Part shown: positions 3,081 through 37,772 of the stretch, piece by piece
Layout of the letters: every line of letters begins with the position of its first letter
Position numbering within the stretch: the first letter of the stretch is position 1
Assembly (NCBI GenBank): GCA_963798845.1
Contig: CAWCUS010000001.1
Coordinates: 448,001-512,000, forward strand
Direction: 5' to 3'
DNA length: 64,000 nucleotides
DNA from: an uncultured Gemmatimonadales bacterium
GTDB lineage: Bacteria > Gemmatimonadota > Gemmatimonadetes > Longimicrobiales > RSA9
Position numbers and translations under genes: made by a program
The notes under the pieces: model-generated
Database searches by the model: none
What the model saw: only the letters and a program-made list of their open reading frames with translations
Told to the model about the DNA's origin: nothing

Positions 3081-4124
3081 TCAGCCGGCCCCGAAGAGGT
3101 TGATCTGCCCCCGTTCGCTCAGGTCCTCGGGCACCGCGTAGCCGAAGCGCTGGAAAGCTCGCCGCGTCGCCACCCGGCCGCGCGGCGTGCGCATGAGGAA
3201 GCCGTTCTGGATCAGGAAGGGCTCGTAGACTTCCTCGATCGTGCCCGGATCCTCGCCCACCGCCACGGCCAGCGTGGTCAGGCCCGCCGGGCCGCCGTCG
3301 AAGTTCTCGATCAGGGTCTTGAGGATGCGACCGTCCATCTCGTCGAGCCCGTACTCGTCGACATCCAACATCTTCAGCGCGTCGTCGGCCACCGGTCCCG
3401 TGATCACCCCGTTCGCGCGTACCTGGGCGAAGTCCCGCACCCGCCGGAGGAGCCGGTTCGCGACGCGCGGTGTGCCCCGGCTCCGCTTCGCGATCTCCTC
3501 CGCGCCCTCGGCCGTAGCGCGCACGTCCAGGATCTCCGCGCTCCGGACCACGATTTCCATCAGCTCATCAGCCCCGTAGTAGTTGAGCCGCTGGACGATT
3601 CCGAAGCGGGCGCGCATCGGAGGCGTGAGCAGACCGAAGCGCGTCGTCGCCCCCACCAGCGTGAAGTGCTCCACCGGCATGGTGATGGTCTGCGCCTTCG
3701 GCCCCTCGCTGAGCCGGATGTCGATCCGGTAGTCCTCCATCGCCGGATAGAGGAACTCCTCGATGATCGGGCGCAGGCGATGGATCTCGTCGATGAAGAG
3801 GAGGTCCCCCTCCTCCAGGTTCGTGAGCAGCCCCACCAGGTCCGCCGGCTTCTCCAGAACCGGCCCGGACGTGGTCTTGATCTGGAAGCCGAGCTCCCGC
3901 GCCATGAGCAACGCCAGCGTCGTCTTGCCGAGCCCCGGCGGCCCGTGAAAGAGCGTGTGGTCCAGCGGCTCGCGGCGCTGCTTCGCCGCGTCAATGGCGA
4001 TGCGCAGCGACTCCTTCACCTTCGACTGGCCGATGAACTCCTCCAGCCGCTGCGGCCGCAGTGAGAGCTCGACGTCCTGGTCGCCGGTGATCGCTTCCGG
4101 GGTGGTGATCTCGGGTCGGTTCAT
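3081..4124 (-). CDS. ruvB: Holliday junction branch migration helicase RuvB
   Basis: [43 protein letters not shown]. Confidence 0.98.
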
Positions 4125-4154: not shown

Positions 4155-4170
4155 TTCGGCCAGTCTTCGG
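4155..4170. promoter_or_regulatory. candidate DNA-damage operator TTCGG-N6-TTCGG upstream of ruvB
   Basis: TTCGG CCAGTC TTCGG on + strand, 30 nt upstream of the ruvB ATG; same motif as at dnaE2 and imuA. Confidence 0.5.
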
Positions 4171-25766: not shown

Positions 25767-26048
25767 GTGCCACGGGAAAGCGGCAAGGTCAAATGGTTCT
25801 CGGACGCCAAGGGCTACGGCTTCATCGAGTCCGAATCCGGCGACGACGTCTTCGTCCACCACACGTCCATCGAGGGCAACGGGTACAAGACGCTGAGCGA
25901 AGGCGAGCGCGTGGAGTACGAGGTGGTGGAGGAGCCGAAGGGGCGGAAGGCGCGGGACGTGGTCCGGCTGGACGCCGCGGGCGACGCATCCGATCCCCGG
26001 CGGGACCGGGCGATCCAGAGCCCCATGGACCACAAGCCGCGGCGCTAG
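25767..26048 (+). CDS. cspA: cold-shock domain protein with C-terminal extension
   Basis: GKVKWFSDAKGYGFI, DVFVHH; GGAGG RBS. Confidence 0.93.
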   Translation: MPRESGKVKWFSDAKGYGFIESESGDDVFVHHTSIEGNGYKTLSEGERVEYEVVEEPKGRKARDVVRLDAAGDASDPRRDRAIQSPMDHKPRR

Positions 26049-27156
26049 CGCGAGCCCGGGTCGGCGGCGTCGAAGAGCCCGAGCTGGCCGTCGGTACGGG
26101 GGCGCCGGAACGCCGTCGCGTCCAGCTCGATCCGGCCGTCCTCCAGGCCGCAGCGCCGGAGTGCGGCCCGGAACAGCTGGTGCAGCTGCTCCGCGTACGG
26201 CCCCTCTCCCTTCATGCGTGAGCCGAAGCGCGGGTCGTTGAGAGCGCCACCGCGGACTTCGCGGATGCGGTGCAGAACGCGTCCCTTCCGGTCCGGGAAA
26301 TGTGCCTCCAGCCAGTCGGCGAACAGCCCCTTCACCCCGTGCGGCAGCCGGACCACGAGCATGGAGGCGGCCACGGCGCCGGCCGCCGCGGCCGCCTCCA
26401 CCAGCGCGGGCACCTCCTCGTCCGTCAGGCCGGGGATCACAGGCGCGATCATGGCGCGCACGGGGACGCCCGCGTCGGTGAGCGCCCGCATGGCCTCCAG
26501 GCGGCGGGCGGGCGAAGACGTGCGCGGCTCCATCACCCGCTGGAGCTCGGGCCGTAGCGTGGTCAGCGACAGCGCCACGGTCGCGGCGCGGTGCGTCGCC
26601 AGATCGCCAAGCAGGTCAATGTCGCGGGTGACCAATGGTTCTTCGTGATCACGGAGACCGGGTGACGGAACTCCGCCAGCACTTCCAGGCAGGCGCGCGT
26701 GAGGCGTAGCCGCCGTTCGACAGGCTGGTACGGGTCGGTCACGCCGCTCAGGCCGATGGGGGACGGCTCCCAGCGCGGCGACGCGAGCGCCTTCCGCAGC
26801 AGCACCGGCGCGTCCTCCTTCACCAGGATCCGGGTCTCGAAGTCCAACCCGGCCGAAAAGCCCAGGTACTCGTGCGTGGGACGAGCGTAGCAGTAAATGC
26901 AGCCGTGCTCGCAGCCCCGGTACGGGTTCAGCATCCAGCTGCACGGCACGTCTGGGCTGTCGTTGCGGTTCAGGATGGAGCGCGAGGCGTCCCGAAAGAA
27001 CAGCGTGCGCGGCGCCGGGCCGTCCGGGTCCGTCCACGACTCGGTGGCCACCACGTGGAGCCGCTCGAAGCGGTTCGCCGGGTTGTCCGTGGCGCCCCGC
27101 CCCCGGAGCGCGCGGTCGGCCGCGGGCTGCCCCTCGGGCGCGCCGGTGCCCGTCAC
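26045..27156 (-). CDS. PA0069/Rv2578c-family (SPL-like) radical SAM protein, interrupted by a 1-nt frameshift near 26634
   Basis: NPYRGCEHGCIYCYARP, TDPYQPVE in one frame; LVTRDIDLL...APVIPGLTD...QLGLF in the other frame. Confidence 0.88.
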
Positions 27157-30100
27157 GAGCGCGCCCCCGACACCGCCGGAGGGGCCGCCGGGCGCTTGCG
27201 CGGCTCCATCTCACGGAATCGACTCGCCACCACGTTCAGCACGCGGCCCTCGCGCTCGAAGCGCCCCTGGACCAGAAGGAACGGCGAGTTGTTGATCGCC
27301 TCCCGGTATGCCTGGTACACGGGTGGCGGGATGATCACGTTGATGAAGCCGGTCTCGTCCTCCATCAGGATGAACACCGTGCCGTTGGCAGTGGCCGGGT
27401 GCTGCCGGGCGACGACCAGCCCCGCCACCACCACGGGCGCCCGGTCCGGCACGTCCGGCAGCTCGGCGGAGCCGACCACGCCATAGTCCTTCAGCCGCGG
27501 CCGGATGTGCTCCATCGGGTGACCGGCCACGGAGATGCCGGTGGCCAGGTAGTCGAGGAAGATGAGGTCCTCGTCGTCCATCTCATCGGGCCGGAACGGG
27601 AGCCGGCGGGCGGGAGCCAGCGGGAGCGTGTCGCCCGCGGCGCGCAGCGCTTCCCACGCCGCCTTCCGACGCCCCGGCTCGAAAGCCTCGAACGCGCCGG
27701 CCCTCGCCAGGTGCAGCGCGTCCGCGCGGGTGAGGCCGGCGCGCCGGACCACGTCGGCCACGGAAGTGATCGGGCCACCGGCGCCCGCCCGCTGAAGCCG
27801 GTCCCGGGCCTCCTCGCCCAGCCCCCGGATGTGCTTCCAGCCGATGCGGACGGCCGGCTGGCGGTCCGCGGAGCCGCCGACGCCGCCGACGGACGCCCGA
27901 TCGGCCCGGTGGGCGGCCGTGGCCCAGTCGCCGGCGGCACCGTCGTCGCCCGGCTCCAGCGTGCAGTCCCACTGGCCGTGGCGGAGGCAGGGCGGGCGGA
28001 CCTCCACGCCGTTGCGGCGGGCCTCGTGGACCAGCGTGGCCGGCGGGTAGAAGCCCATGGGCCACGCGTTCAGCAGCGCCATGAGGAAGTCGGCCGGGTA
28101 ATGCGCCTTCAGGTACGCGGTGGCGTACGCGATGAGGGCGAAGCTCCAGGCGTGGCTCTCGGGGAAGCCGTAGTTGGAGAAGGAGTAGAGGTCGTCCGTG
28201 ATCCGCTCGGCGTTCTCCGGCGACACGCCGTTCCCGGTCATCCGCTCCTTCAGCCGCTGGATGGCCGCGTGCAGCTTCGGCAGCTTGCGACGGTGCCCCA
28301 TGGCGCGCCGGAGCTCGTCCGCCTCCGCGGCCGTGAAGCCGCCCAGCGCCATGGAGATGGCCATGGCCTGCTCCTGGAAGATCGGGATGCCGTACGTGCG
28401 CCGGAGGATCGGCTTCAGCCGCTCGTCCAGGTACTCCACCTCCTCCAGCCCGAGCCGGCGACGCGTGTAGGGGCGGACGAACCGGGCCTGGATCGGACCC
28501 GGGCGGATCAGCGCCACCTGGACCACGATGTCGTACAGCCGCCGCGGCTGCGTCTGGAGGATGGACTGGATCTGCGCCCGGGACTCGATCTGGAACGTGC
28601 CCAGCGTGTCCCCGCGGCCGATCATGTCGTACGTGGCCGGATCGTCCACGGGGAGGTCGTAGAGCGCCATCTCCCGGCCGGTGCGCGCGCGGATGGCGTC
28701 GAACGCCTTGTGCACGACGCTGAGGCCACCCAGCCCCAGGAAGTCGAACTTCGGCACGCCCGCGGCGTCCAGGTCGTCCTTGTCGAACTGGAGGATGGTG
28801 CGCCCCATCGTCGTCTCCTCGATGGGGAGGAACTCGCCCAGTGGCGCGCTGGACAGGACGAAGCCGCCCGGGTGCGTCGAGCGGAGCCGCGGAACGTCGT
28901 CGAGCGAGCGGAGCGCGGACAGCAGCGCCCGCCCCTTCGGCGACGCCGTGTCCACCCCGAACTGCGCGGCCAGCCCCGCGGTCAGCTCCTCCGCCGCCTC
29001 CGCCGGCTCCCGGCCGTGCAGCCGCTTGCTGAGATTGAACGCCGTCTCCGCCGGCCAGCCCAGGGCCCGCATGCAGTCCTGGATGGCCGTGGGCGCGTGG
29101 AAGACCTGCGTCACGGCCGTGATGGCGGCGTGCTGCCGGCCGTAGCGCGTGTACATGTAGTCCAGGACCTCCTCGCGCCGGTGCATCTCGAAATCCACGT
29201 CAATGTCCGGCGCCTCCGTCAGCCCGTCGGTGCGCACCTCGCTGAGAAAGCGCTCGAAGAGCAGCCCGTGGCGCACCGGGTCGACCGCGGTGATCTCGAG
29301 GCAGAAGGCCACGGCGGAGTTCGCCGCGCTCCCCCGACCCTGGCACAGGATCCCCCGCGACCTCGCCTCCCGCACCGCGTCCCACATGACCAGGAAGAAG
29401 CCCGAGAAGCCCAGCCGGTCGATCACCCCCAGCTCGTGCTCCAGCTGCGCCCGCTGGCGCGCGTCCAGCTCACCCCAGCGCTTCTCCGCGCCCCGGAACG
29501 TCAGCTCCCGCAGCCACGAGCCGTCCGTCTGGCCTCGGGGCACCGGAAACTTCGGCAGCGGCGGACGCACCCACCTCAAGTCGAACGCGCACGCCTCCGC
29601 GATGGCCGCAGAAGTCTCCAGCCCCGCTTCCCGCCCCTTCCACAGCGTGCCCATCTCCGCCGGGCTCTTGAGCCGCCACTCCCCGTTCGGGTGCAGCACC
29701 CCCCAGCTCGCCGCCGTGTCGATGTCCAGGTCGGCCCGCAGCGCCGTGAGGAGGTCGTGCACCAGGCGGGTGCCGCCGTCCACGTAGCGCGGGTCGTTCG
29801 TCGCCACCCACGGCACCCCCTGCCGCTCCGCCAGCTCGATCAGCGCTCCCACCAGTGCGCCCTCCTCCCCCGACACGTGGTGCAGCCCCACTTCCACCGC
29901 CAACCGTCCCGGGAACAGCTCCCGCAACCGCGACAGCAGGAACACCGCCTCCTCCGGCCGACCCTGCCGCAGCATGCTCGCCAGCTCCCCCTCCGCGGGG
30001 CCCGTCAGCAGGTGCAGCCCACCGGTCCGCCCCTCCAGATCCGACAGGGTGAGAAGCGGCTGACCGCGCGGAGGGATCGGATCCCCCGCCTCCATGCCCG

Positions 30101-30760
30101 TGCGAGTGCCGTGCCAGCGCCCGTGCGAGTGCCCGTGCTCGTGCGGGTGCGTGCCCCCGCCCGGCTACCGCCGCGGGTGACGGCCCGGGCATCGCCGCGG
30201 GTGCCGGCCCGGCTGGCGCCCGGCGAGGCGGCGAGCGGTCGTCGCCGAGAGGTCACCGCCGTCGCCCGCGTGCGAACCCGCCCGTCCCGGTCCAGGTGCA
30301 GACCCGCCCCCGGTGCCCGCCTCGCGCTCCCGGAATCCGGGTACCACCCCGACCCGGAAGCGGAGCTCGACCCCGGAGCGGAGCTCGACCCCGGAGCGGA
30401 GCCGTCCCCCTCCTCCGCATAGATCGCTACCCGCTCCGCCTTCTCCGCGAGCCACGCCCCCCAGTCCCCCATGCGGCTCCGCGTCACCAGCCCCGCCAGG
30501 TTGCGGAATCCCTCCCGGTCCGAGGCCAGCAGCGCCAGCGGATGCCCGTCCACCACCAGCTCTGCCCCCACCACCGGCCGGATTCCCGCGCTCCCCGCCG
30601 CCAGTGCGAAGCGGATCACTCCGCCCAGGTCCGAGCAGTCCGTCAGCCCGAGCGACCCATGCCCTTGCCCGGCCGCCGCCCGGACCAGCGTCTCGGGTGT
30701 GGCCGAGCCATCGCCGAAGGAGAAGGCGGAGTGCGCGCGAAGCTCGGTGAATCCGGTCAT
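27153..30760 (-). CDS. dnaE2: error-prone DNA polymerase DnaE2 (ImuC), interrupted by a 1-nt frameshift near 30109
   Basis: N-terminal [16 protein letters not shown] (30760-30110); [32 protein letters not shown] fold (27153-30095). Confidence 0.92.
30361..30401. repeat. 18-bp in-frame tandem repeat inside the dnaE2 insertion
   Basis: CGGAGCTCGACCCCGGAG x2 plus partial, encoding SAPGSS repeats. Confidence 0.8.
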
Positions 30761-30907
30761 GGCCTCCCCTGCACCGGCTGCGCGCCCGCCCGTGCCGGGA
30801 GGCTGCGCCTGCGATTGGCGGCTCCGGAACGACGCACCACGCCATTCCCCCGCGGGGATGGAGGGCTTGGCCGATACGAAGGCCGCCGGCGAGCGGCGGC
30901 CCCGAAG

Positions 30908-30963
30908 CCGAAGGTTTACCGAAACAAAGAATGGCATCACCCAGAACCGAAAACAACCCGAAA
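30908..30963 (-). promoter_or_regulatory. dnaE2 promoter with two TTTCGG-N6-TTCGG boxes
   Basis: Minus strand TTTCGG GTTGTT TTCGG (30947-30963) and TTTCGG TAAACC TTCGG (30908-30924) around TTGTTT-N17-CATTCT with an extended TG. Confidence 0.65.
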
Positions 30964-31094
30964 GGCGGCGGCGGGGTCTTTGCCCGGAATGCCGCGCGCG
31001 TTATGCTAATCGCACCGCGGTCTGGAGGCCGCGGCACCCATCATCCACGCCGCAGGTCGTCCCGCAGGCGACGCAACATCCCGGAGGTTCTTGC

Positions 31095-32201
31095 ATGACG
31101 CAGCATTCGAGTCGGGCCGGTCACCCCGTTTTCCGCGCGGCGCGTTTCGGCCCGGTACTGGCCGCAGCGCTCTTCCTGGTCCCGACGGGAGCGCGGGCGC
31201 AGGGCGTCACGTACAGGGAAGTGAGCCGGACCGAGCTGAGCGGCACGGCGGGCAAGGTGCTGAAGGTGCTGAGCGGGGGGATGAAGTCCGAGCAGACCGT
31301 GAGCATCGGGGACGGGAAGATGCGCACCGACAGCGAGGGGTCCTCGACGATTCTGGACACGCAGGCGAAACGCTGGATCTTCCTGGACCACGAGAAGAAG
31401 CAGTACTACGCCATGTCGCTGGACGACATGATGGAGTCCATGTCGCAGATGGGGGCACAGATGAAGGAAGCGGCAGCCCAGCAGCCCGCGCAGGCGCAGC
31501 GGGGCACGGCGGCGGATTCTTCCGGCATCGAGTGGAGCTTCGATCTGGCCGTGGATCGCACGGGCCGCAAGGAGCAGGTCTCCGGCTACCCCGCCGAGGA
31601 GGTCCTGCTGACCCTCAAGATCCAGGGCAAGGGAACGGACCAGGAGACCGGCGACACCGCCAGCATGAACATGGTCCTCCTCAATGACCTCTGGATGAGC
31701 ACCGACGCCGCCCTCACCAGCGCCATGAAGGAGTTCGGCGCCGGGATGAGCGAGGCCGCCCGGGAGAGCGGGGCCTCGATGACGGCAGGAATGGAGGAGG
31801 CCTTCGGCCAGGACCCGCGGATCAAGGCCGGGATGGAGAAGGCTGCGAAGGAGGCCGCGAAGCTCGAGGGGATCCAGCTCAAGGGCACCACCTACGTCGT
31901 CCTCCTGCCTCCCGGCACGGAGTTCGATCGTCAGCTCGCCCTCGAGGGCCCCCGAAAGAAGGAGGGCAGCGGCGCTTCCGACGCCGCCAAGAAAGCGGTC
32001 TCCAACAAGCTGGGCGGACTCCTCGGCCGCAAGCCGAAGGAGGAGCCGACAGAAGAGACACCGGCTGCCCCTCAGCAGGCCACGCTCATGACCACCACCA
32101 CCGAGGTCACGAGCATCGATGTCGGCCCCGTGCCCGCCGACCGCTTCGCCGTTCCGGCCGGCTACACCGAGGTGCATCCCCCAACGGCCACGGGCGGCTG
32201 A
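31095..32201 (+). CDS. secreted protein (DUF4412-like)
   Basis: Signal peptide ARA-Q; KMRTD...STILD...LDHEKKQY; FAVPAGY C-terminus; GGAGG RBS. Confidence 0.75.
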   Translation: MTQHSSRAGHPVFRAARFGPVLAAALFLVPTGARAQGVTYREVSRTELSGTAGKVLKVLSGGMKSEQTVSIGDGKMRTDSEGSSTILDTQAKRWIFLDHEKKQYYAMSLDDMMESMSQMGAQMKEAAAQQPAQAQRGTAADSSGIEWSFDLAVDRTGRKEQVSGYPAEEVLLTLKIQGKGTDQETGDTASMNMVLLNDLWMSTDAALTSAMKEFGAGMSEAARESGASMTAGMEEAFGQDPRIKAGMEKAAKEAAKLEGIQLKGTTYVVLLPPGTEFDRQLALEGPRKKEGSGASDAAKKAVSNKLGGLLGRKPKEEPTEETPAAPQQATLMTTTTEVTSIDVGPVPADRFAVPAGYTEVHPPTATGG

Positions 32202-32214
32202 TCCACCGCCCGAC

Positions 32215-32252
32215 CGACGGCAGCCGGCGCGCGCCTCGCCTCCGCTGCCGTC
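32215..32252 (+). terminator. hairpin after the secreted protein gene
   Basis: CGACGGCAGC ... GCTGCCGTCG inverted repeat. Confidence 0.5.
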
Positions 32253-32448
32253 GGGCTCCCCAAGCCCCTGACTGCCGCCACCTCCTTCGACGCGCTCAGG
32301 CGCACTGCGGACTCGAACGGCGCACCAACCCTGCACCAGCGCGCGCCTGGGCAGCCTTCCGTGGCCGCGCCCCCCGGGGATTGACGGGCCGACGGCCGCT
32401 GTGTAATGGTTAACCCATACACCAGGACACCGCGCCACCGGAGACTTC

Positions 32449-33666
32449 ATGACCGCCGTGCTGCAGTCGCTGAACGCCGCAGTCGAAAGCCTGAGGAGCA
32501 ACCCGCTCCGGACGGTGCTTTCGACGCTCGGCGTGATCATCGGGGTGGCCTCTCTGGTTGCGATTCTGGCGCTGGGCGACGGGCTGGAGCGGTACAGCCG
32601 TGCGCAGATCGCGGAATCGACGGACCTGCAGACGGTGGTCGTGACGCCGAAGACGACGGACCGAGAGGACGGGATCCTGGTACGTCGGCAGCGAGTGGAG
32701 CGGCTGGACCGCGAGGCGGTGGCGGGGCTGCAGACGCGCCTGGGGGAACGGGCGGATGCCATGCTGTTCGTGATGGGGGCTGCACGCATGGAAGCAGCGC
32801 GGGACACGGAGCAGCATGCGGTGCTGCTCACGGCGACGGAGCCCGCCGCGGCGCTGCAGCTGAGGGAGGGGGTGGTGGCGGGGCGGTTCCTCACCGCGGC
32901 CGACGTTTCCGGCGACTCTGCGGTCGCGGTGGTGCCGCTGGAGGCGCTGGGAGCCGATGCCCGGGCCGGCGGCGTCGGGGAGAGCGTCAGGATAGGTGGC
33001 GACGTGCTTCGGGTGATCGGGGTGACGCAGGAAACGGGGCCGATCCTGCGAGTCTACGTCCCGCTGAGCGACGCGCGGCGTGAGCAGCTCGAGGGGCCGG
33101 ATCGGCCGACGTCGCTCGCGGTGAGGGCGCGCCGGGTGGAAGATGTGGAGCGGGTGCGAGCGGCTACGGAATCGTGGCTGGCGGAGCGGTACGGGGCTGC
33201 GGACGGGTTCGCCGTCGCCAGCAACCAGGCGCGGGCCGCGCAGGCGCGACAGGGGATGCTCGTGTTCAAGCTCGTGATGGGGGCGATCGCGGGGATCTCG
33301 CTCCTGGTCGGCGGGATCGGGATCATGAACATCCTGCTGGCGAGCGTGTTGGAGCGTACGCGGGAGATCGGGATCCGGAAGGCCTCCGGTGCGCGGCAGC
33401 GCGACATCCTCGTCCAGTTCCTGGCCGAAGCGGTCACCATCACCGGCGTGGGCAGCGTGCTGGGGGTGGTGGTGGGACTGGCGGGTGCGTTCGGCATCAC
33501 CGCGGCGATCCGCCACTACACGGATGCGCCGCTGTTCGCGGCCTTCACGTGGGGGTCCGTGCTGGTGGCCGCGGGAGCGGCGCTGGTGGTCGGCCTGGCC
33601 TTCGGGACGTACCCTGCGCGCCGTGCCGCGAAGCTGTCGCCGATCGAGGCGATCCGCCACGAGTGA
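32449..33666 (+). CDS. MacB/FtsX-like ABC transporter permease
   Basis: LRTVLSTLGVIIGVAS, GGIGIMNILLASVLERTREIGIRK, PARRAAKLSPIEAIRHE; no adjacent ATPase. Confidence 0.93.
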   Translation: MTAVLQSLNAAVESLRSNPLRTVLSTLGVIIGVASLVAILALGDGLERYSRAQIAESTDLQTVVVTPKTTDREDGILVRRQRVERLDREAVAGLQTRLGERADAMLFVMGAARMEAARDTEQHAVLLTATEPAAALQLREGVVAGRFLTAADVSGDSAVAVVPLEALGADARAGGVGESVRIGGDVLRVIGVTQETGPILRVYVPLSDARREQLEGPDRPTSLAVRARRVEDVERVRAATESWLAERYGAADGFAVASNQARAAQARQGMLVFKLVMGAIAGISLLVGGIGIMNILLASVLERTREIGIRKASGARQRDILVQFLAEAVTITGVGSVLGVVVGLAGAFGITAAIRHYTDAPLFAAFTWGSVLVAAGAALVVGLAFGTYPARRAAKLSPIEAIRHE

Positions 33667-33682
33667 CGGGGGCGGAGCTCGC

Positions 33683-33920
33683 CTATTCCGGGTGCACCTC
33701 CCGCATGAGGCGGACGTATCGCGCGAGCACGGTGCGCGCCGTCTCGGTATCGCCGAGTCCTGCCCGCGCGGCCGCCAGCATCGCCAGAGCCGGGAGGGGG
33801 TAGTCGGGGCCGATGCGGAGAGCGGTCCCGGCGTCGCGGGCGGCGCCCTCCGGATCGCCGGTCTGCGGTCGAACAGCGGCGCGGGCCGCGAACGCATAGG
33901 GCACGGTGTCGCTCGGCGCA
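33683..33920 (-). pseudogene. C-terminal TPR-like gene fragment
   Basis: YAFAARAAVRPQTGDPEGAARDAGTALRIGPDYPLPALAMLAAARAGLGD is TPR-like; no credible N-terminus. Confidence 0.5.
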
Positions 33921-34320
33921 CTGCTCTCCGCCACCGCTATCGTGACCGGATGCGGCGACGGCGGCACGCCGACGGCGCCGGCCCTCGGGGCGCCGGGCTC
34001 CGACGCTTCCAGGGCGCCGGGCGTGCTCCCGGCCGACCACTGCATGAACTTCTCGTACACGACGCGTGGCGACCTCGGGCTGTACGAGGATCCGCTGCAC
34101 CCTGGCCAGTACCTGTTCGGCGCCATGCCCACGTATCCGTTCTACGTCGGTGCCGGTTCCCGGAGACGGCTGCCTCGTCAATGACCAGATGCGCATCGCC
34201 GAAGGGGGCGGCGCGTGCGCCGAGGCGGAAGGGCGGATCTTCAACCACGGCATCGTCAACATCCCCGAAGGCTGGCTCGATCTCGACATGGAGGCCGGGT
34301 CTGCGGCGCCGGGATCCTCG
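33906..34320 (+). pseudogene. degraded lipoprotein gene (frame switch near 34150)
   Basis: Lipobox VTGC-GDGGTPTAP in ORF 33906-34184; continuation CLVNDQMRIAEGGG...GRIFNHGIVNI in another frame. Confidence 0.5.
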
Positions 34321-34439
34321 GGTGGGGCGCGCCATGACCGCGACCACCACGCGACCACCACCATGACCGTCGCAGATCACCTGGCGGCGCGCCGCGGCGC
34401 CGCCGGGCGCGCTTCCGGGTGGGGGGTCGTACGCGTCGT

Positions 34440-35978
34440 TCAATCCCAGTAGCCGTGGACGTACCAGCCGCCGTCCACGCCGTCGCGGAAGATCCACAGA
34501 GGGACGCCCTCGTCGGTGACGCAGCGGTAGTACTCGCGCGCATACGGCGAGGGCTCCCACTGTCCGCCGGAGATACGGTCCGGCCCGGCCGCCACGACCA
34601 GCTCCCGCCAACCCCCGCGGTCGCGAATCCGCACCGGGGCTTCGTGGTCGCGGCGACGGACGGTCTCCACCATGACCGCGCGGGGCGGGTCCAGGAGCTG
34701 GAGGACCATGTCGGCGCCTTCGCCCGACGCGGCCCCCGACAGCGTCGCCGGGGCGGACGCTCCGGCGGCGGGCACCGGCTTCGGGCCCGCTGCCACGCGC
34801 TCCAGGCTCACGGGCGTCCAGTCGGCGCGCCGCTCCACGAGCGGGTGGGCGCCGGATCCCGGGGCAAGGGGGAGCGCCTCCCGCTCGGCAAGGCGGGCCA
34901 CGGCGGCCTCCACGGCGGACGCGGTGGCGAAGCCACGGTCGAAGAGGTCGCCCTGCTGAACGGCGGCGGCTTCGGTAGAGACCACCTCGAGGCCCATCCC
35001 GGCCACGGCATCCGGGACGGTGAGCCGGTCGAGGAGGCCGCGCAGGAGCCGGAGCCACGTCTCCCGGCTCGCAGTAGGACGCGCCGGCCGGAGCGTGCGC
35101 GCCCACTCGTCGCCGTTGGCCAGCGGCAGCGTGAGGCGCAGCGCCCGGGCGTGCTCGCCCCGCGTCGCCAGTCCATCGCACACCGGCCCCAGGAGCGCGT
35201 TGGCGGTGAACAGGAGCCGGGACGGGTCCGTGAGGACATAGTCCACGAAGTCGATGGAGCCGTGGGGTCGCTCGGACGGGACCGGCCGGAACAGGCGACG
35301 CCGGTCGTCGCCGCGCGCCAGCCGCCAGAGCCCCACCGCGCTTGCTCCGAAGCGCACCTCCACCGCCTCCCGCTCCAGCGCCGCCAGCTCACCCACGCGC
35401 GCCACACCCACCCCGTCGAGGAGCGCCCGCAGCCGGTCGTCCGGCCCCAGCGCCGCGACCGGGAGGGTAGCCATCCACGCCGCCTCCCCACCCCGCTCCA
35501 CCGCCACGACGGCCCCGGATGCGCCGCTCCCTCCCATCCCCGCCCCCACCCCCTTCCGCCACCCCCACCCGGTGCGCTCCTTCACCAGGAACGGCGTGGG
35601 ACCGGCAGGACGGCCGGCCTCCGCGCCGAAGCGCGCCGCCAGCTCCGCGGCCACGGGAACGGCGGCCACGCCCGCGCGCACGATGGCGCCTCCACCCCCA
35701 CTCCCATCCGGCGGCGCCGCCTCGGCCCCCGCCGCCTCGGCCCCCGCCGCCTCGAGCCGCGCCACCAGCGCGCCGGCCAGCGCCCGCGCGTCCAGCCCAC
35801 GGGCATCGGCCCAGACCACCTCGCGCTCCACCCGCACCCGGGGCGCCAGCTCCGCCACGATGGGACCGGCCTCCCGCGGAGATGCGAGCGGCGAGGAGGA
35901 GTCGGCGGGGCCGTCGCCTTCAGCGGGAAGAGACGCCCCGGCGGTCGACCAGCCGGGGCTCCAGACACAGACGTACAT
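34440..35978 (-). CDS. imuB: ImuB-like Y-family polymerase homolog
   Basis: LPVAALG...GVARVGELAAL...RFG thumb, QGDLF clamp motif, C-terminal AGPDRISGGQW...REYY...WIFRD...WYVHGYWD. Confidence 0.85.
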   Translation of the reverse strand: MYVCVWSPGWSTAGASLPAEGDGPADSSSPLASPREAGPIVAELAPRVRVEREVVWADARGLDARALAGALVARLEAAGAEAAGAEAAPPDGSGGGGAIVRAGVAAVPVAAELAARFGAEAGRPAGPTPFLVKERTGWGWRKGVGAGMGGSGASGAVVAVERGGEAAWMATLPVAALGPDDRLRALLDGVGVARVGELAALEREAVEVRFGASAVGLWRLARGDDRRRLFRPVPSERPHGSIDFVDYVLTDPSRLLFTANALLGPVCDGLATRGEHARALRLTLPLANGDEWARTLRPARPTASRETWLRLLRGLLDRLTVPDAVAGMGLEVVSTEAAAVQQGDLFDRGFATASAVEAAVARLAEREALPLAPGSGAHPLVERRADWTPVSLERVAAGPKPVPAAGASAPATLSGAASGEGADMVLQLLDPPRAVMVETVRRRDHEAPVRIRDRGGWRELVVAAGPDRISGGQWEPSPYAREYYRCVTDEGVPLWIFRDGVDGGWYVHGYWD

Positions 35979-36627
35979 CGTGATGCTTCACTCCCAGTCG
36001 GAACCGGACCCGCCGGTCCAGCCCCAGCGACTCCAGCCTCGCCCGCACCGCCACGGACTCCAGCGCTACCGGCTCTCCGAACGGGCCCCGCCGCCAGCGG
36101 AACCCCTCCGGTTCGAATGATGACGACACCCTCAGGTGCGACAGGGGCGCCCCCGCCGCCACCGCCACGAACGCGCTCCCCCCTTCCCTCGCCGCCCGCC
36201 CCAGGCGCACGCCCTCGCCGTCGCCCAGCACCCCACCATCCCCCGCCAGGACGACGAGGGCGAAGCCGCCCGAGCGCAGCAGCTCCTCCGCCACCAGCAC
36301 CGCGTCCGCCACACCGGGGCGGAAAAACAGCGGTCCCTCCTCCCAGTACGCTCCCGCCGCATCACCCCGCCCGTCCACCCACGCCGCGCGCTCTCCAGCC
36401 GCCACCCGCTCCCGGCTCGCCGCACGCAGCACCGCCGTGCTCCCGCCCCCCGGCCGCCAGAGCGTCATCCGCCCCCGTGGCAGCCCCCCCGCCGGCAGCG
36501 CCGCGTCCAGCGCACCCACCCCGGTCGGCACCGCCCCGGCAAGCCCCGTCCGCACGGGCTGGGCGTCGGGAAAGCGACGCTCCAGCTCCCTGCGGAGCTC
36601 CAGGACCTCGGCGGGCAGTGCGGCCAC
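35920..36627 (-). CDS. imuA: ImuA-like RecA-fold protein
   Basis: VPTGVGALDAALPAGGLPRG, AAWVDG, EELLRSGGFALVVL; degenerate Walker A; upstream of imuB. Confidence 0.82.
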   Translation of the reverse strand: MAALPAEVLELRRELERRFPDAQPVRTGLAGAVPTGVGALDAALPAGGLPRGRMTLWRPGGGSTAVLRAASRERVAAGERAAWVDGRGDAAGAYWEEGPLFFRPGVADAVLVAEELLRSGGFALVVLAGDGGVLGDGEGVRLGRAAREGGSAFVAVAAGAPLSHLRVSSSFEPEGFRWRRGPFGEPVALESVAVRARLESLGLDRRVRFRLGVKHHDVRLCLEPRLVDRRGVSSR

Positions 36628-36671
36628 GGACGTGTCTCCTCCGGTCGGGTGATGCGATGCCAGGGGCCCGT

Positions 36672-36701
36672 AGTGTAATACCGAAGATAAACCGAAATCA
36701 A
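36672..36701 (-). promoter_or_regulatory. imuA promoter with TTTCGG-N6-TTCGG box in the spacer
   Basis: Minus strand TTGATT-N18-TACACT; box TTTCGG TTTATC TTCGG at 36681-36697. Confidence 0.7.
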
Positions 36702-36983
36702 GGGTCGAAGAGGAACCGTGACACGAAGGACTCGAAGGGTCGAAGGGCTCGAAGGGGGCAGCGCTGAGCCCCGGGTCGAAGCGGGGGTCCGCGGGGGTGG
36801 AAGCGATCCGGGTTCCGGGACTGAAACTGGACTCCCGGTGAGCTTCGGGTCACCGGCGAACCAAGCTCCGGACCATGCTCTGCCCGTGAGCGTCGGGGTC
36901 CCCCGGGCACCTCGGGTCGCCCGGCATGACTTCGAGCCCTTCGACCCTTCGATCCCTTCGTGTCAAGAATTTCTTCGACCCTT
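36700..36983. mobile_element. MITE-like element with about 55-bp imperfect terminal inverted repeats
   Basis: Left AAGGGTCGAAGAGGAACCGTGACACGAAGGACTCGAAGGGTCGAAGGGCTCGAAG vs reverse complement of right end AAGGGTCGAAGAAATTCTTGACACGAAGGGATCGAAGGGTCGAAGGGCTCGAAG; no TSD seen. Confidence 0.55.
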
Positions 36984-37037
36984 CCCGCCGGCCCTTCGAC
37001 GCTTCCGCTGGCAGGGCGGTTGCGGAGGGTCACGGCC

Positions 37038-37772
37038 ATGAAGCTCACGTTCCTTGGAACGCGCGGTGAGATCGAGGCGCGGACGCCTCTTCACCGCATG
37101 CATACGTCGCTGCTGGTGAGCTACGGTGGCGCGCGGGTGATGATCGACGCGGGGACGGACTGGCTGGAGGCGGTGCACGACCTGCGTCCGCGCCCTCACG
37201 CGCTGGTGATCACGCACGCGCACCCGGACCACGCGTGGGGGCTCGAGCACGGGTCGCCCGCGCCGGTCTGGGCGACGGCGGCGGCGTGGGACGGGATGGC
37301 GGAGTACGCGATCCCGGCCGAAGCGCGGCGCATCGTCGTGGACCGGGAGCCGTTCGAGATCGGCGGGATCCGCTTCGAGGCGTTCGTGGTGGAGCATTCG
37401 ATCCGGGCGCCGACCGTCGGCTATCGGATCAGCGCGGGAGAGGTGACCGTCTGGTACGGGCCGGACCTGGTGTACATCGCGGAGCGGGCGGAGGCGCTCC
37501 AGGGCTGCCGGCTCTACATCGGCGACGGGGCCACCATGACGCAGTCGTTCGTGCGCAGGCGGGGCAAGCGGCTGGTGGGCCACACGCCGGTGCGGACGCA
37601 GCTGACCTGGTGCGCGAAGGAGGGGGTCCCGCGCGCGGTGATCAGCCACTGCGGGAAGGAGATCGTGGAGGGCGACGAGCGGGTGCTCGGCGCCGAGCTG
37701 CGGGCCATGGCGGAGGAGCGGGGCGTGGAGGCCGAGTTCGCGCGGGACGGGCTGGAGATCGTGCTGCGTTGA
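37038..37772 (+). CDS. MBL-fold metallo-hydrolase
   Basis: MKLTFLGTRG, THAHPDHAWG, VEHS, ISHCG. Confidence 0.9.
   Translation: MKLTFLGTRGEIEARTPLHRMHTSLLVSYGGARVMIDAGTDWLEAVHDLRPRPHALVITHAHPDHAWGLEHGSPAPVWATAAAWDGMAEYAIPAEARRIVVDREPFEIGGIRFEAFVVEHSIRAPTVGYRISAGEVTVWYGPDLVYIAERAEALQGCRLYIGDGATMTQSFVRRRGKRLVGHTPVRTQLTWCAKEGVPRAVISHCGKEIVEGDERVLGAELRAMAEERGVEAEFARDGLEIVLR

Follow-up and report, generated by a model that had tools for sequence, protein, structure and literature searches.

A TTCGG-N6-TTCGG Direct Repeat as the Predicted LexA Operator of SOS Genes in Class Gemmatimonadetes

Genes and Candidate Operators at the imuA-imuB and dnaE2 Loci

The window analyzed here is a stretch of 64,000 nucleotides from the genome (G000) of an uncultured Gemmatimonadales bacterium (assembly GCA_963798845.1, contig CAWCUS010000001.1, positions 448,001 to 512,000). 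It carries an imuA-like gene, an imuB-like gene, the error-prone polymerase gene dnaE2, and ruvB, and the element in question is the direct repeat TTCGG-N6-TTCGG found ahead of them. The placement, conservation, and rigid spacing of the sites, and the presence of both LexA and RecA in intact form, make it very probable that this repeat serves the canonical LexA protein (P0001) as its operator in class Gemmatimonadetes.

A sequence scan of the window returned four exact copies (Table 1), while 100 dinucleotide shuffles gave a mean of 0.16 and a maximum of 1, such that none of the 100 reached four. An earlier note on this DNA, made by a model from the letters alone, had arrived at a similarly low chance estimate, and it had pointed to three copies on the gene strand and a fourth ahead of ruvB. 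All four are indeed present at those places, the first three on the minus strand. The note's coordinates included one additional 5′ T, and this base drops out of the motif, as T occurs at that position in only 53 of 212 sites. Its description of the spacers as AT-rich also fails for the ruvB copy, which is in addition inverted relative to its gene. The identical 16-mer of the ruvB box is present in genomes G054, G006, and G033.

Table 1. Coordinates of the genes, putative promoters, and putative LexA boxes discussed in the text (window positions unless a G000 contig is named)
Feature	Location	Strand	Basis or remark
Putative LexA box, imuA-imuB promoter	36681..36696	-	Exact TTCGG-N6-TTCGG; fills -35/-10 spacer
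Putative LexA box 1 of dnaE2	30947..30962	-	Overlaps putative -35; retained in same-genus G054
Putative LexA box 2 of dnaE2	30908..30923	-	Starts 4 nt past putative -10, on expected start site; retained in G054
Putative LexA box at ruvB	4155..4170	+	Opposite in orientation to ruvB, 31 nt ahead of its start; a weaker member of the regulon
Putative imuA promoter, TTGATT-N18-TACACT	36672..36701 (TTGATT 36696-36701, TACACT 36672-36677)	-	Read by eye
Putative dnaE2 promoter, TTGTTT-N17-CATTCT, TGn ahead of -10	30928..30956 (TTGTTT 30951-30956, CATTCT 30928-30933)	-	Read by eye
imuA-like gene, RecA-like, 235 aa	35920..36627	-	Weak NF033429 match, E 2.4e-4, below cut-off; no Pfam match
imuB-like gene, Y-family polymerase-like	34440..35978, start uncertain (35858 in gene model)	-	Weak matches to Pol IV and IMS_C
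dnaE2 N-terminal (PHP) reading frame	30005..30760	-	NF004225 positions 4-106; ends at stop after frameshift
dnaE2 main reading frame, error-prone DNA polymerase	27153..30095	-	NF004225, E 4.7e-287, over cut-off; Pfam
PA0069/Rv2578c-like radical SAM gene, directly 3′ of dnaE2	26045..27214	-	NF033668, E 1.1e-67, below cut-off
ruvB	3081..4124	-	TIGR00635 and NF000868, over cut-off
Canonical LexA P0001	G000:C4:126104-126727		TIGR00498, 207.8 bits, cut-off 110.95
LexA-like P0002 (L002)	G000:C5:228897-229571		LexA-type DNA-binding domain

With respect to the genes themselves, the three members of the imuA-imuB-dnaE2 set that the earlier note had named as SOS genes are all present, and orthologues of the imuA-like gene precede imuB and dnaE2 in relatives. 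In the window, however, three unrelated genes (31095-34060) lie between dnaE2 and imuAB, and because of this separation dnaE2 would need operators of its own. It is also frameshifted in the assembly at 30077-30158 (minus strand), within a low-complexity, repeat-rich insertion past the PHP domain. In G054 dnaE2 reads as a single open frame, and the corresponding region is open in 19 of 20 other orthologues as well; the frameshift is either an assembly error or a recent inactivation. The radical SAM gene that directly follows probably shares a transcript with dnaE2.

Several further features of this region were recorded. The three intervening genes encode a DUF4412-like secreted protein (plus strand), a MacB-like permease (plus strand), and a small TPR-like protein (minus strand). 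The first of these is divergent from dnaE2, and both dnaE2 operators are common to the two genes. In the region upstream of the imuA promoter (36720-37000), short TCGAAG/CTTCGA words are numerous and inverted relative to one another, and they may form a REP-like or structured element. An Rfam scan of the window gave no matches.

Placement of the Motif in the Genome

Across G000 the exact repeat occurs 15 times, and eight of these copies are intergenic according to our own gene calls. All eight precede repair genes, namely lexA (two copies), recA, a uvrC-like gene, imuA, dnaE2 (two copies), and ruvB. The sites at lexA and recA, which the earlier note had looked to as a check on its proposal, are therefore in place. 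The product of the uvrC-like gene, a predicted nuclease, matches UvrC structures at E 3e-5 and has no Pfam match.

A weight matrix trained solely on the lexA sites of relatives gave a concordant picture when the 3642 upstream regions of G000 were ranked. Specifically, imuA was placed first, recA third, the uvrC-like gene fourth, lexA fifth, ruvB eighth, and uvrB tenth, the uvrB site carrying one mismatch. Ranks 6, 7, and 9 belong to the genes divergent from lexA, dnaE2, and ruvB and reflect the same sites. No sites were found upstream of uvrD, radA, or ruvC, and the predicted regulon is compact.

Among the other spacer lengths, N3 (7 of 16 matches intergenic) and N11 (7 of 13) were considered as rival signals and set aside, as these matches are mostly 8-bp tandem repeats at two loci. 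The remaining intergenic N3 and N11 matches are scattered singles plus the gap between the two lexA boxes.

Conservation at Orthologous Promoters

The most extensive evidence comes from lexA itself. We collected 400 nt upstream of each of 107 non-redundant Gemmatimonadetes-type lexA genes, a set that includes G000 as well as four loci placed by LexA sequence (L015, L031, L044, and L068). At least one exact box is present in 106 of these 107 promoters, and two boxes are present in 99; in G000, the two boxes stand directly ahead of the gene. The spacing is rigid, with 205 matches to the N6 direct repeat in these regions, none at N2-4 or N7, and at most two palindromes for any spacer. In the two-box promoters, TTG is found ahead of box 1 in 98 of 99 cases and TANNNT after it in 88 of 99, from which it follows that box 1 fills the -35/-10 spacer while box 2 covers the start region. 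The imuA promoter of the window has the same arrangement as these lexA promoters of relatives. The 212 individual lexA sites also share a preference for T (142 sites) and G (95 sites) in the two positions before the second half-site, which gives TGTTCGG. In G000 the lexA operators (G000:C4:126740-126793) occupy a gap of 65 nt between lexA and a divergent trpC-like gene (identified by eye), the start of which they touch; this divergent layout is repeated in many relatives.

Boxes are likewise retained at the other genes, as the earlier note had expected for imuA and dnaE2. Among imuA orthologues, 28 of 31 have an exact box and 29 of 31 a box within one mismatch (one has no upstream sequence), while control stretches gave 0 of 29 and 1 of 29, respectively. 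A class-wide search found imuA in only 4 of 61 genomes, so the imuA comparison rests mainly on f1, the family to which the window belongs. For recA, 26 of 29 orthologues have a site within one mismatch, the first half usually being TTCGC, and the controls gave 0 of 26 exact and 1 of 26 within one mismatch; the two Acidobacteriota-side recA genes having upstream sequence showed no box. In the case of dnaE2, 30 relatives gave a match and 20 of these were examined; an exact box precedes the gene in 13. These 13 are precisely the orthologues in which dnaE2 is split from imuB (13 of 13); the seven that lie directly behind imuB have none (0 of 7) and would be covered by the operon promoter. At ruvB, an order-wide comparison gave an exact box in 2 of 29 orthologues and a box within one mismatch in 8 of 29, all inverted, compared to 0 of 29 and 1 of 29 in the controls.

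The promoter layouts just described bear on the possibility that the motif serves not a repressor but a DNA-damage activator or an alternative sigma factor of the PafBC/DriD-like kind. The fixed position of the first box between -35 and -10 in the lexA and imuA promoters is indeed what a promoter element would show. The second lexA boxes, however, lie 3′ of the -10 at gaps varying from 5 to 21 nt, and recA and ruvB sites are found in both orientations, which together argue for an occluding repressor rather than a sigma element. Moreover, the motif follows a LexA helix residue across phyla, as described below. We accordingly view an activator or sigma element as very improbable, and the LexA operator as the better account of these layouts.

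Several observations nonetheless weigh against the assignment. Related genomes are not independent samples, and the figures above are thus conservation counts and not statistical tests. Exact boxes occur at only 6 of 29 recA orthologues, most sites there having one mismatch, and the scarcity of boxes at ruvB orthologues makes that gene a patchy regulon member. Within G000, seven of the 15 exact copies fall in coding sequence, and the second-ranked matrix hit is a coding match in a glyoxalase gene. No upstream site within two mismatches was found in G000 for either uvrA, for dinB, or for recN, and the two ssb genes have upstream sites at two mismatches only, so that sites predicted in the earlier note at uvrA, recN, and ssb did not materialize. 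The promoter hexamers at imuA and dnaE2 are present as letters but are identified by eye only, as a strict sigma-70 scan of 30700-37100 called no promoters. Finally, the bare 16-mer is not over-represented at N6 genome-wide, since other spacers from N0 to N15 give 5 to 38 matches, and the signal must therefore reside in placement and not in count.

This last point is also an argument for a chance or compositional origin of the copies, given a genome of 70% GC, and 11-bp TTCGG tandem repeats are in addition frequent in unrelated viral contigs. On the matter of random distribution raised by the earlier note, the count is thus unremarkable, yet every intergenic copy precedes a repair gene. That placement, the shuffled windows, and the retention of the box at orthologous promoters relative to control stretches contradict a chance origin, which we hold to be the least probable of the readings considered here.

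LexA, Its Paralogue, and a Proposed Mechanism

LexA is the SOS repressor, and RecA filaments trigger its self-cleavage (PMC3091678, PMC7739468). G000 encodes both a cleavable LexA and RecA. Its canonical LexA, P0001, retains the Ala92-Gly93 cleavage site along with Ser126 and Lys164, and its closest relatives, which share up to 79% identity, come from Gemmatimonadota and mainly from Longimicrobiales; Acidobacteriota (Vicinamibacteria) follow at approximately 60%. The presence of this protein, and of boxes at lexA, recA, imuA, and dnaE2 here and in relatives, supports the proposal in the earlier note that the repeat is the SOS repressor site of this lineage.

That note had left open whether the repressor is LexA or a non-canonical regulator, and a candidate for the latter exists in P0002, a LexA-like protein that lacks the Ala-Gly, Ser, and Lys residues of the cleavage machinery. 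It, or another repressor, might bind the motif alone or together with canonical LexA. P0002 possesses a LexA-type DNA-binding domain in which Glu takes the place of E. coli E45, and several families of the class retain the protein. Its recognition helix is otherwise different, however, reading STKSVSELL compared to SLATVHEHL in P0001, and the box is located at canonical lexA and changes with the canonical LexA helix. Furthermore, a search with P0002 as query found orthologues in 13 of 46 genomes of the class and in 0 of 30 genomes of family f4, the lexA promoters of which bear the box, so P0002 is unnecessary to explain the motif. None of 12 promoters of P0002-type paralogues has a site within one mismatch. 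On the strength of the f4 absence and these boxless promoters we reject P0002 as the binder, consider a non-canonical repressor in general to be highly unlikely, and favor canonical LexA. Three P0002 orthologues (L591, L592, and L594) keep the Ala-Gly and Ser motifs, and the P0002 gene lies just 3′ of a tRNA-like sequence.

In terms of mechanism, a LexA dimer would bind two head-to-tail half-sites 11 bp, or one helical turn, apart. Bound in the -35/-10 spacer or on the start site, it would be expected to block RNA polymerase. Following DNA damage, RecA filaments would promote LexA self-cleavage at Ala92-Gly93 by Ser126 and Lys164, and this would release lexA, recA, imuA-imuB, dnaE2 with the radical SAM gene, uvrB, the uvrC-like nuclease gene, and probably ruvB.

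Relation to Known LexA Boxes

The earlier note had described the motif as undescribed, and this part of its claim holds only in part. A Patescibacteria LexA, KKW01361.1, is listed as experimentally validated, with PMID 28618189 as the source (PMC8565304 Table S2), and metagenome locus L383 encodes a LexA identical to it. The L383 promoter reads TTGACAC-TTCGG-N6-TTCGG-C-TATACT, with the exact box in the -35/-10 spacer. The recognition helix SLATVHEHL is the same in KKW01361.1 and P0001, although the two proteins are only 41% identical overall. Given a validated protein with this helix and the exact box in its own promoter, our motif most likely corresponds to the LexA box reported earlier from Patescibacteria and here encountered in a new phylum; the match to the published consensus is itself a deduction from the L383 promoter. 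Sanchez-Osuna, Barbe and Erill reportedly described a direct-repeat LexA-binding motif for Patescibacteria in 2017. That the Patescibacteria motif is a direct repeat is also implied in PMC7739468. The Patescibacteria and Gemmatimonadetes versions share the exact motif, the spacer position, and the helix, and differ in phylum and in the -35 element (TTGAC in the former, TTGCGY in the latter); Gemmatimonadetes, unlike Patescibacteria, has two boxes at lexA and a regulon with imuA-imuB-dnaE2. The motif thus extends a known switch and reveals no new one. Neither a Gemmatimonadota SOS box nor the TTCGG-N6 string appeared in the literature searched, which mostly excluded subscription papers and bioRxiv supplements, and within that literature only the occurrence in Gemmatimonadota seems to be unreported.

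More broadly, the motif falls among the direct-repeat LexA boxes with an 11-bp period that occur in Alphaproteobacteria and Acidobacteria. The earlier note had correctly drawn the alphaproteobacterial parallel from the shared period, and the half-sites overlap as well. Acidobacterium capsulatum is said to use the same alphaproteobacterial-type box. The alphaproteobacterial consensus is GTTC-N7-GTTC (PMC8565304, PMC3323433), and that of Caulobacter is (T/A)TGTTC-N6-TGTTC (PMC13384398). Both systems have a direct repeat, the 11-bp period, a TTC core, and a similar regulon, and the second half-site here is often TGTTCGG. The G before TTC, however, is found in only 31 of 212 first half-sites, whereas the GG after TTC is near-invariant, and GTTC-N7-GTTC matches only 12 of 77 lexA regions. 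The Gram-positive box, GAAC-N4-GTTC (PMC3323433), shares the right half-site (G)TTCG in sequence and orientation but is a palindrome, while the Gemmatimonadetes lexA regions favor the direct repeat as counted above. Lastly, the imuA-imuB-dnaE2 cassette is known to be LexA-regulated in contiguous or split form (PMC3919608). The window holds the split form, with the same three genes under a putative LexA box, and is distinguished from the known cassette by the two operators belonging to dnaE2 itself and by its frameshift in the assembly.

Possible Co-variation of the Recognition Helix and the Half-Site

Residue E45 of E. coli LexA contacts DNA (PMC3091678), and the Glu in the P0001 recognition helix aligns with it. 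Within class Gemmatimonadetes, Glu occupies this position in 106 of 107 proteins, the remaining one being unparsed. In the other classes of the phylum (11 lexA genes), the residue is always Lys, the TTCGG box is missing, and a TTCGC-type box takes the equivalent promoter position. The same three features characterize 27 Vicinamibacteria-like lexA genes (26 from Acidobacteriota and 1 from Deltaproteobacteria).

A further 40 Acidobacteriota, drawn from 62 matches and unselected for the motif, were then compared. The sole Glu protein among them has an exact TTCGG-N6-TTCGG, and the 35 with Lys or Arg have none; 14 of the latter have TTCGC-type boxes and four have TTCAC-N6-TTCAC. In all four of these (L451, L454, L456, and L461), LexA has Asn at the position of E. 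coli N41, although five other Acidobacteriota LexAs with Asn there showed no box by the patterns used. By those patterns 21 of the 40 lack a box altogether, while a mixed site, TTCGT/TTCGG, accompanies one Lys protein. The LexAs behind metagenomic TTCGG boxes (20, among the matches listed) have Glu in 13 cases, Gln in four, Asp in three, and Lys in none, with the proviso that these were selected by motif.

In base-level contacts, an acidic residue reads C and a basic residue reads G on the opposite strand. We hypothesize that the pairing of Glu with TTCGG and of Lys or Arg with TTCGC fits this chemistry, and that base 5 of the half-site tracks a single helix residue over some three to four lineage changes. 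In a 96-row tree (FastTree, trait columns retained), which included 23 of the 107 Gemmatimonadetes and 9 of the 27 Vicinamibacteria-like rows and from which the Glu acidobacterium was dropped by the promoter filter, both traits change only three times and yield one supported independent pair, which is not significant. We lean slightly toward a wider scheme in which a TTC-R-S-N6-TTC-R-S operator family spans Gemmatimonadota, Acidobacteriota, Patescibacteria, Krumholzibacteriota, and some Spirochaetota and is governed by a helix-3 code: Glu, Gln, or Asp at E45 would specify TTCGG, Lys or Arg TTCGC, and Asn at N41 would make the fourth base A (TTCAC).

Metagenomic and Viral Loci

A metagenome scan with the promoter-like pattern TTGAC-N0-3-TTCGG-N6-TTCGG-NTA returned at least 118 loci, in at least 20 of which lexA is the first gene downstream. 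Ten of the metagenome proteins were looked up and fell into clusters from Kerfeldbacteria/Parcubacteria (LexA and RecA), Amesbacteria, Blackburnbacteria, Spirochaetota, and Krumholzibacteria, with four lacking a taxon. The same TTCGG-box promoter layout stands ahead of the Kerfeldbacteria-cluster recA and of small open reading frames (ORFs) of Amesbacteria and Blackburnbacteria.

Three groups of genes recur at these loci. A family of ORFs of 73-88 aa (L310, L320, L327, L336, L337, L340, L348, L354, L361-L363, L380, and others) mostly begins about 10 nt after the promoter; these likely encode a small SOS protein of Patescibacteria, two of them being named from Amesbacteria and Blackburnbacteria. 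Radical-SAM-like proteins of approximately 420 aa are encoded directly behind the promoter on GC-rich contigs (L307, L343, L375, and L419) and are likely an additional regulon member. In six low-GC loci (L306, L315, L325, L331, L355, and L379), each under a TTCGG box, lexA continues in-frame into a long C-terminal extension that appears by eye to be DNA methyltransferase-like. A double-box scan of viral contigs (118 loci, L157-L274) yielded no lexA or recA match and mostly 11-bp tandem arrays. By eye these arrays resemble the iterons of replication origins, and they are a source of false positives for the motif.

Implications

The regulatory logic proposed here is itself ordinary. For Gemmatimonadota, a phylum common in soil and sediment that contributes none of the 44 LexA proteins given as validated in 2021 (PMC8565304 Table S2), it predicts an SOS box together with a compact regulon, and it indicates that the Patescibacteria-type direct repeat is not limited to Patescibacteria. 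Class Gemmatimonadetes has cultured members, and a motif known so far from uncultured bacteria could consequently be tested in vivo. The Glu/Lys switch would allow two questions to be tested directly: how LexA motifs change, and how half-sites in head-to-tail order are recognized by a symmetric dimer. If the helix code is true, one substitution would be enough to switch the specificity for an SOS box, two residues would suffice to predict the box of an uncultured phylum, and a clean mutant pair would make the head-to-tail binding mode of LexA testable.

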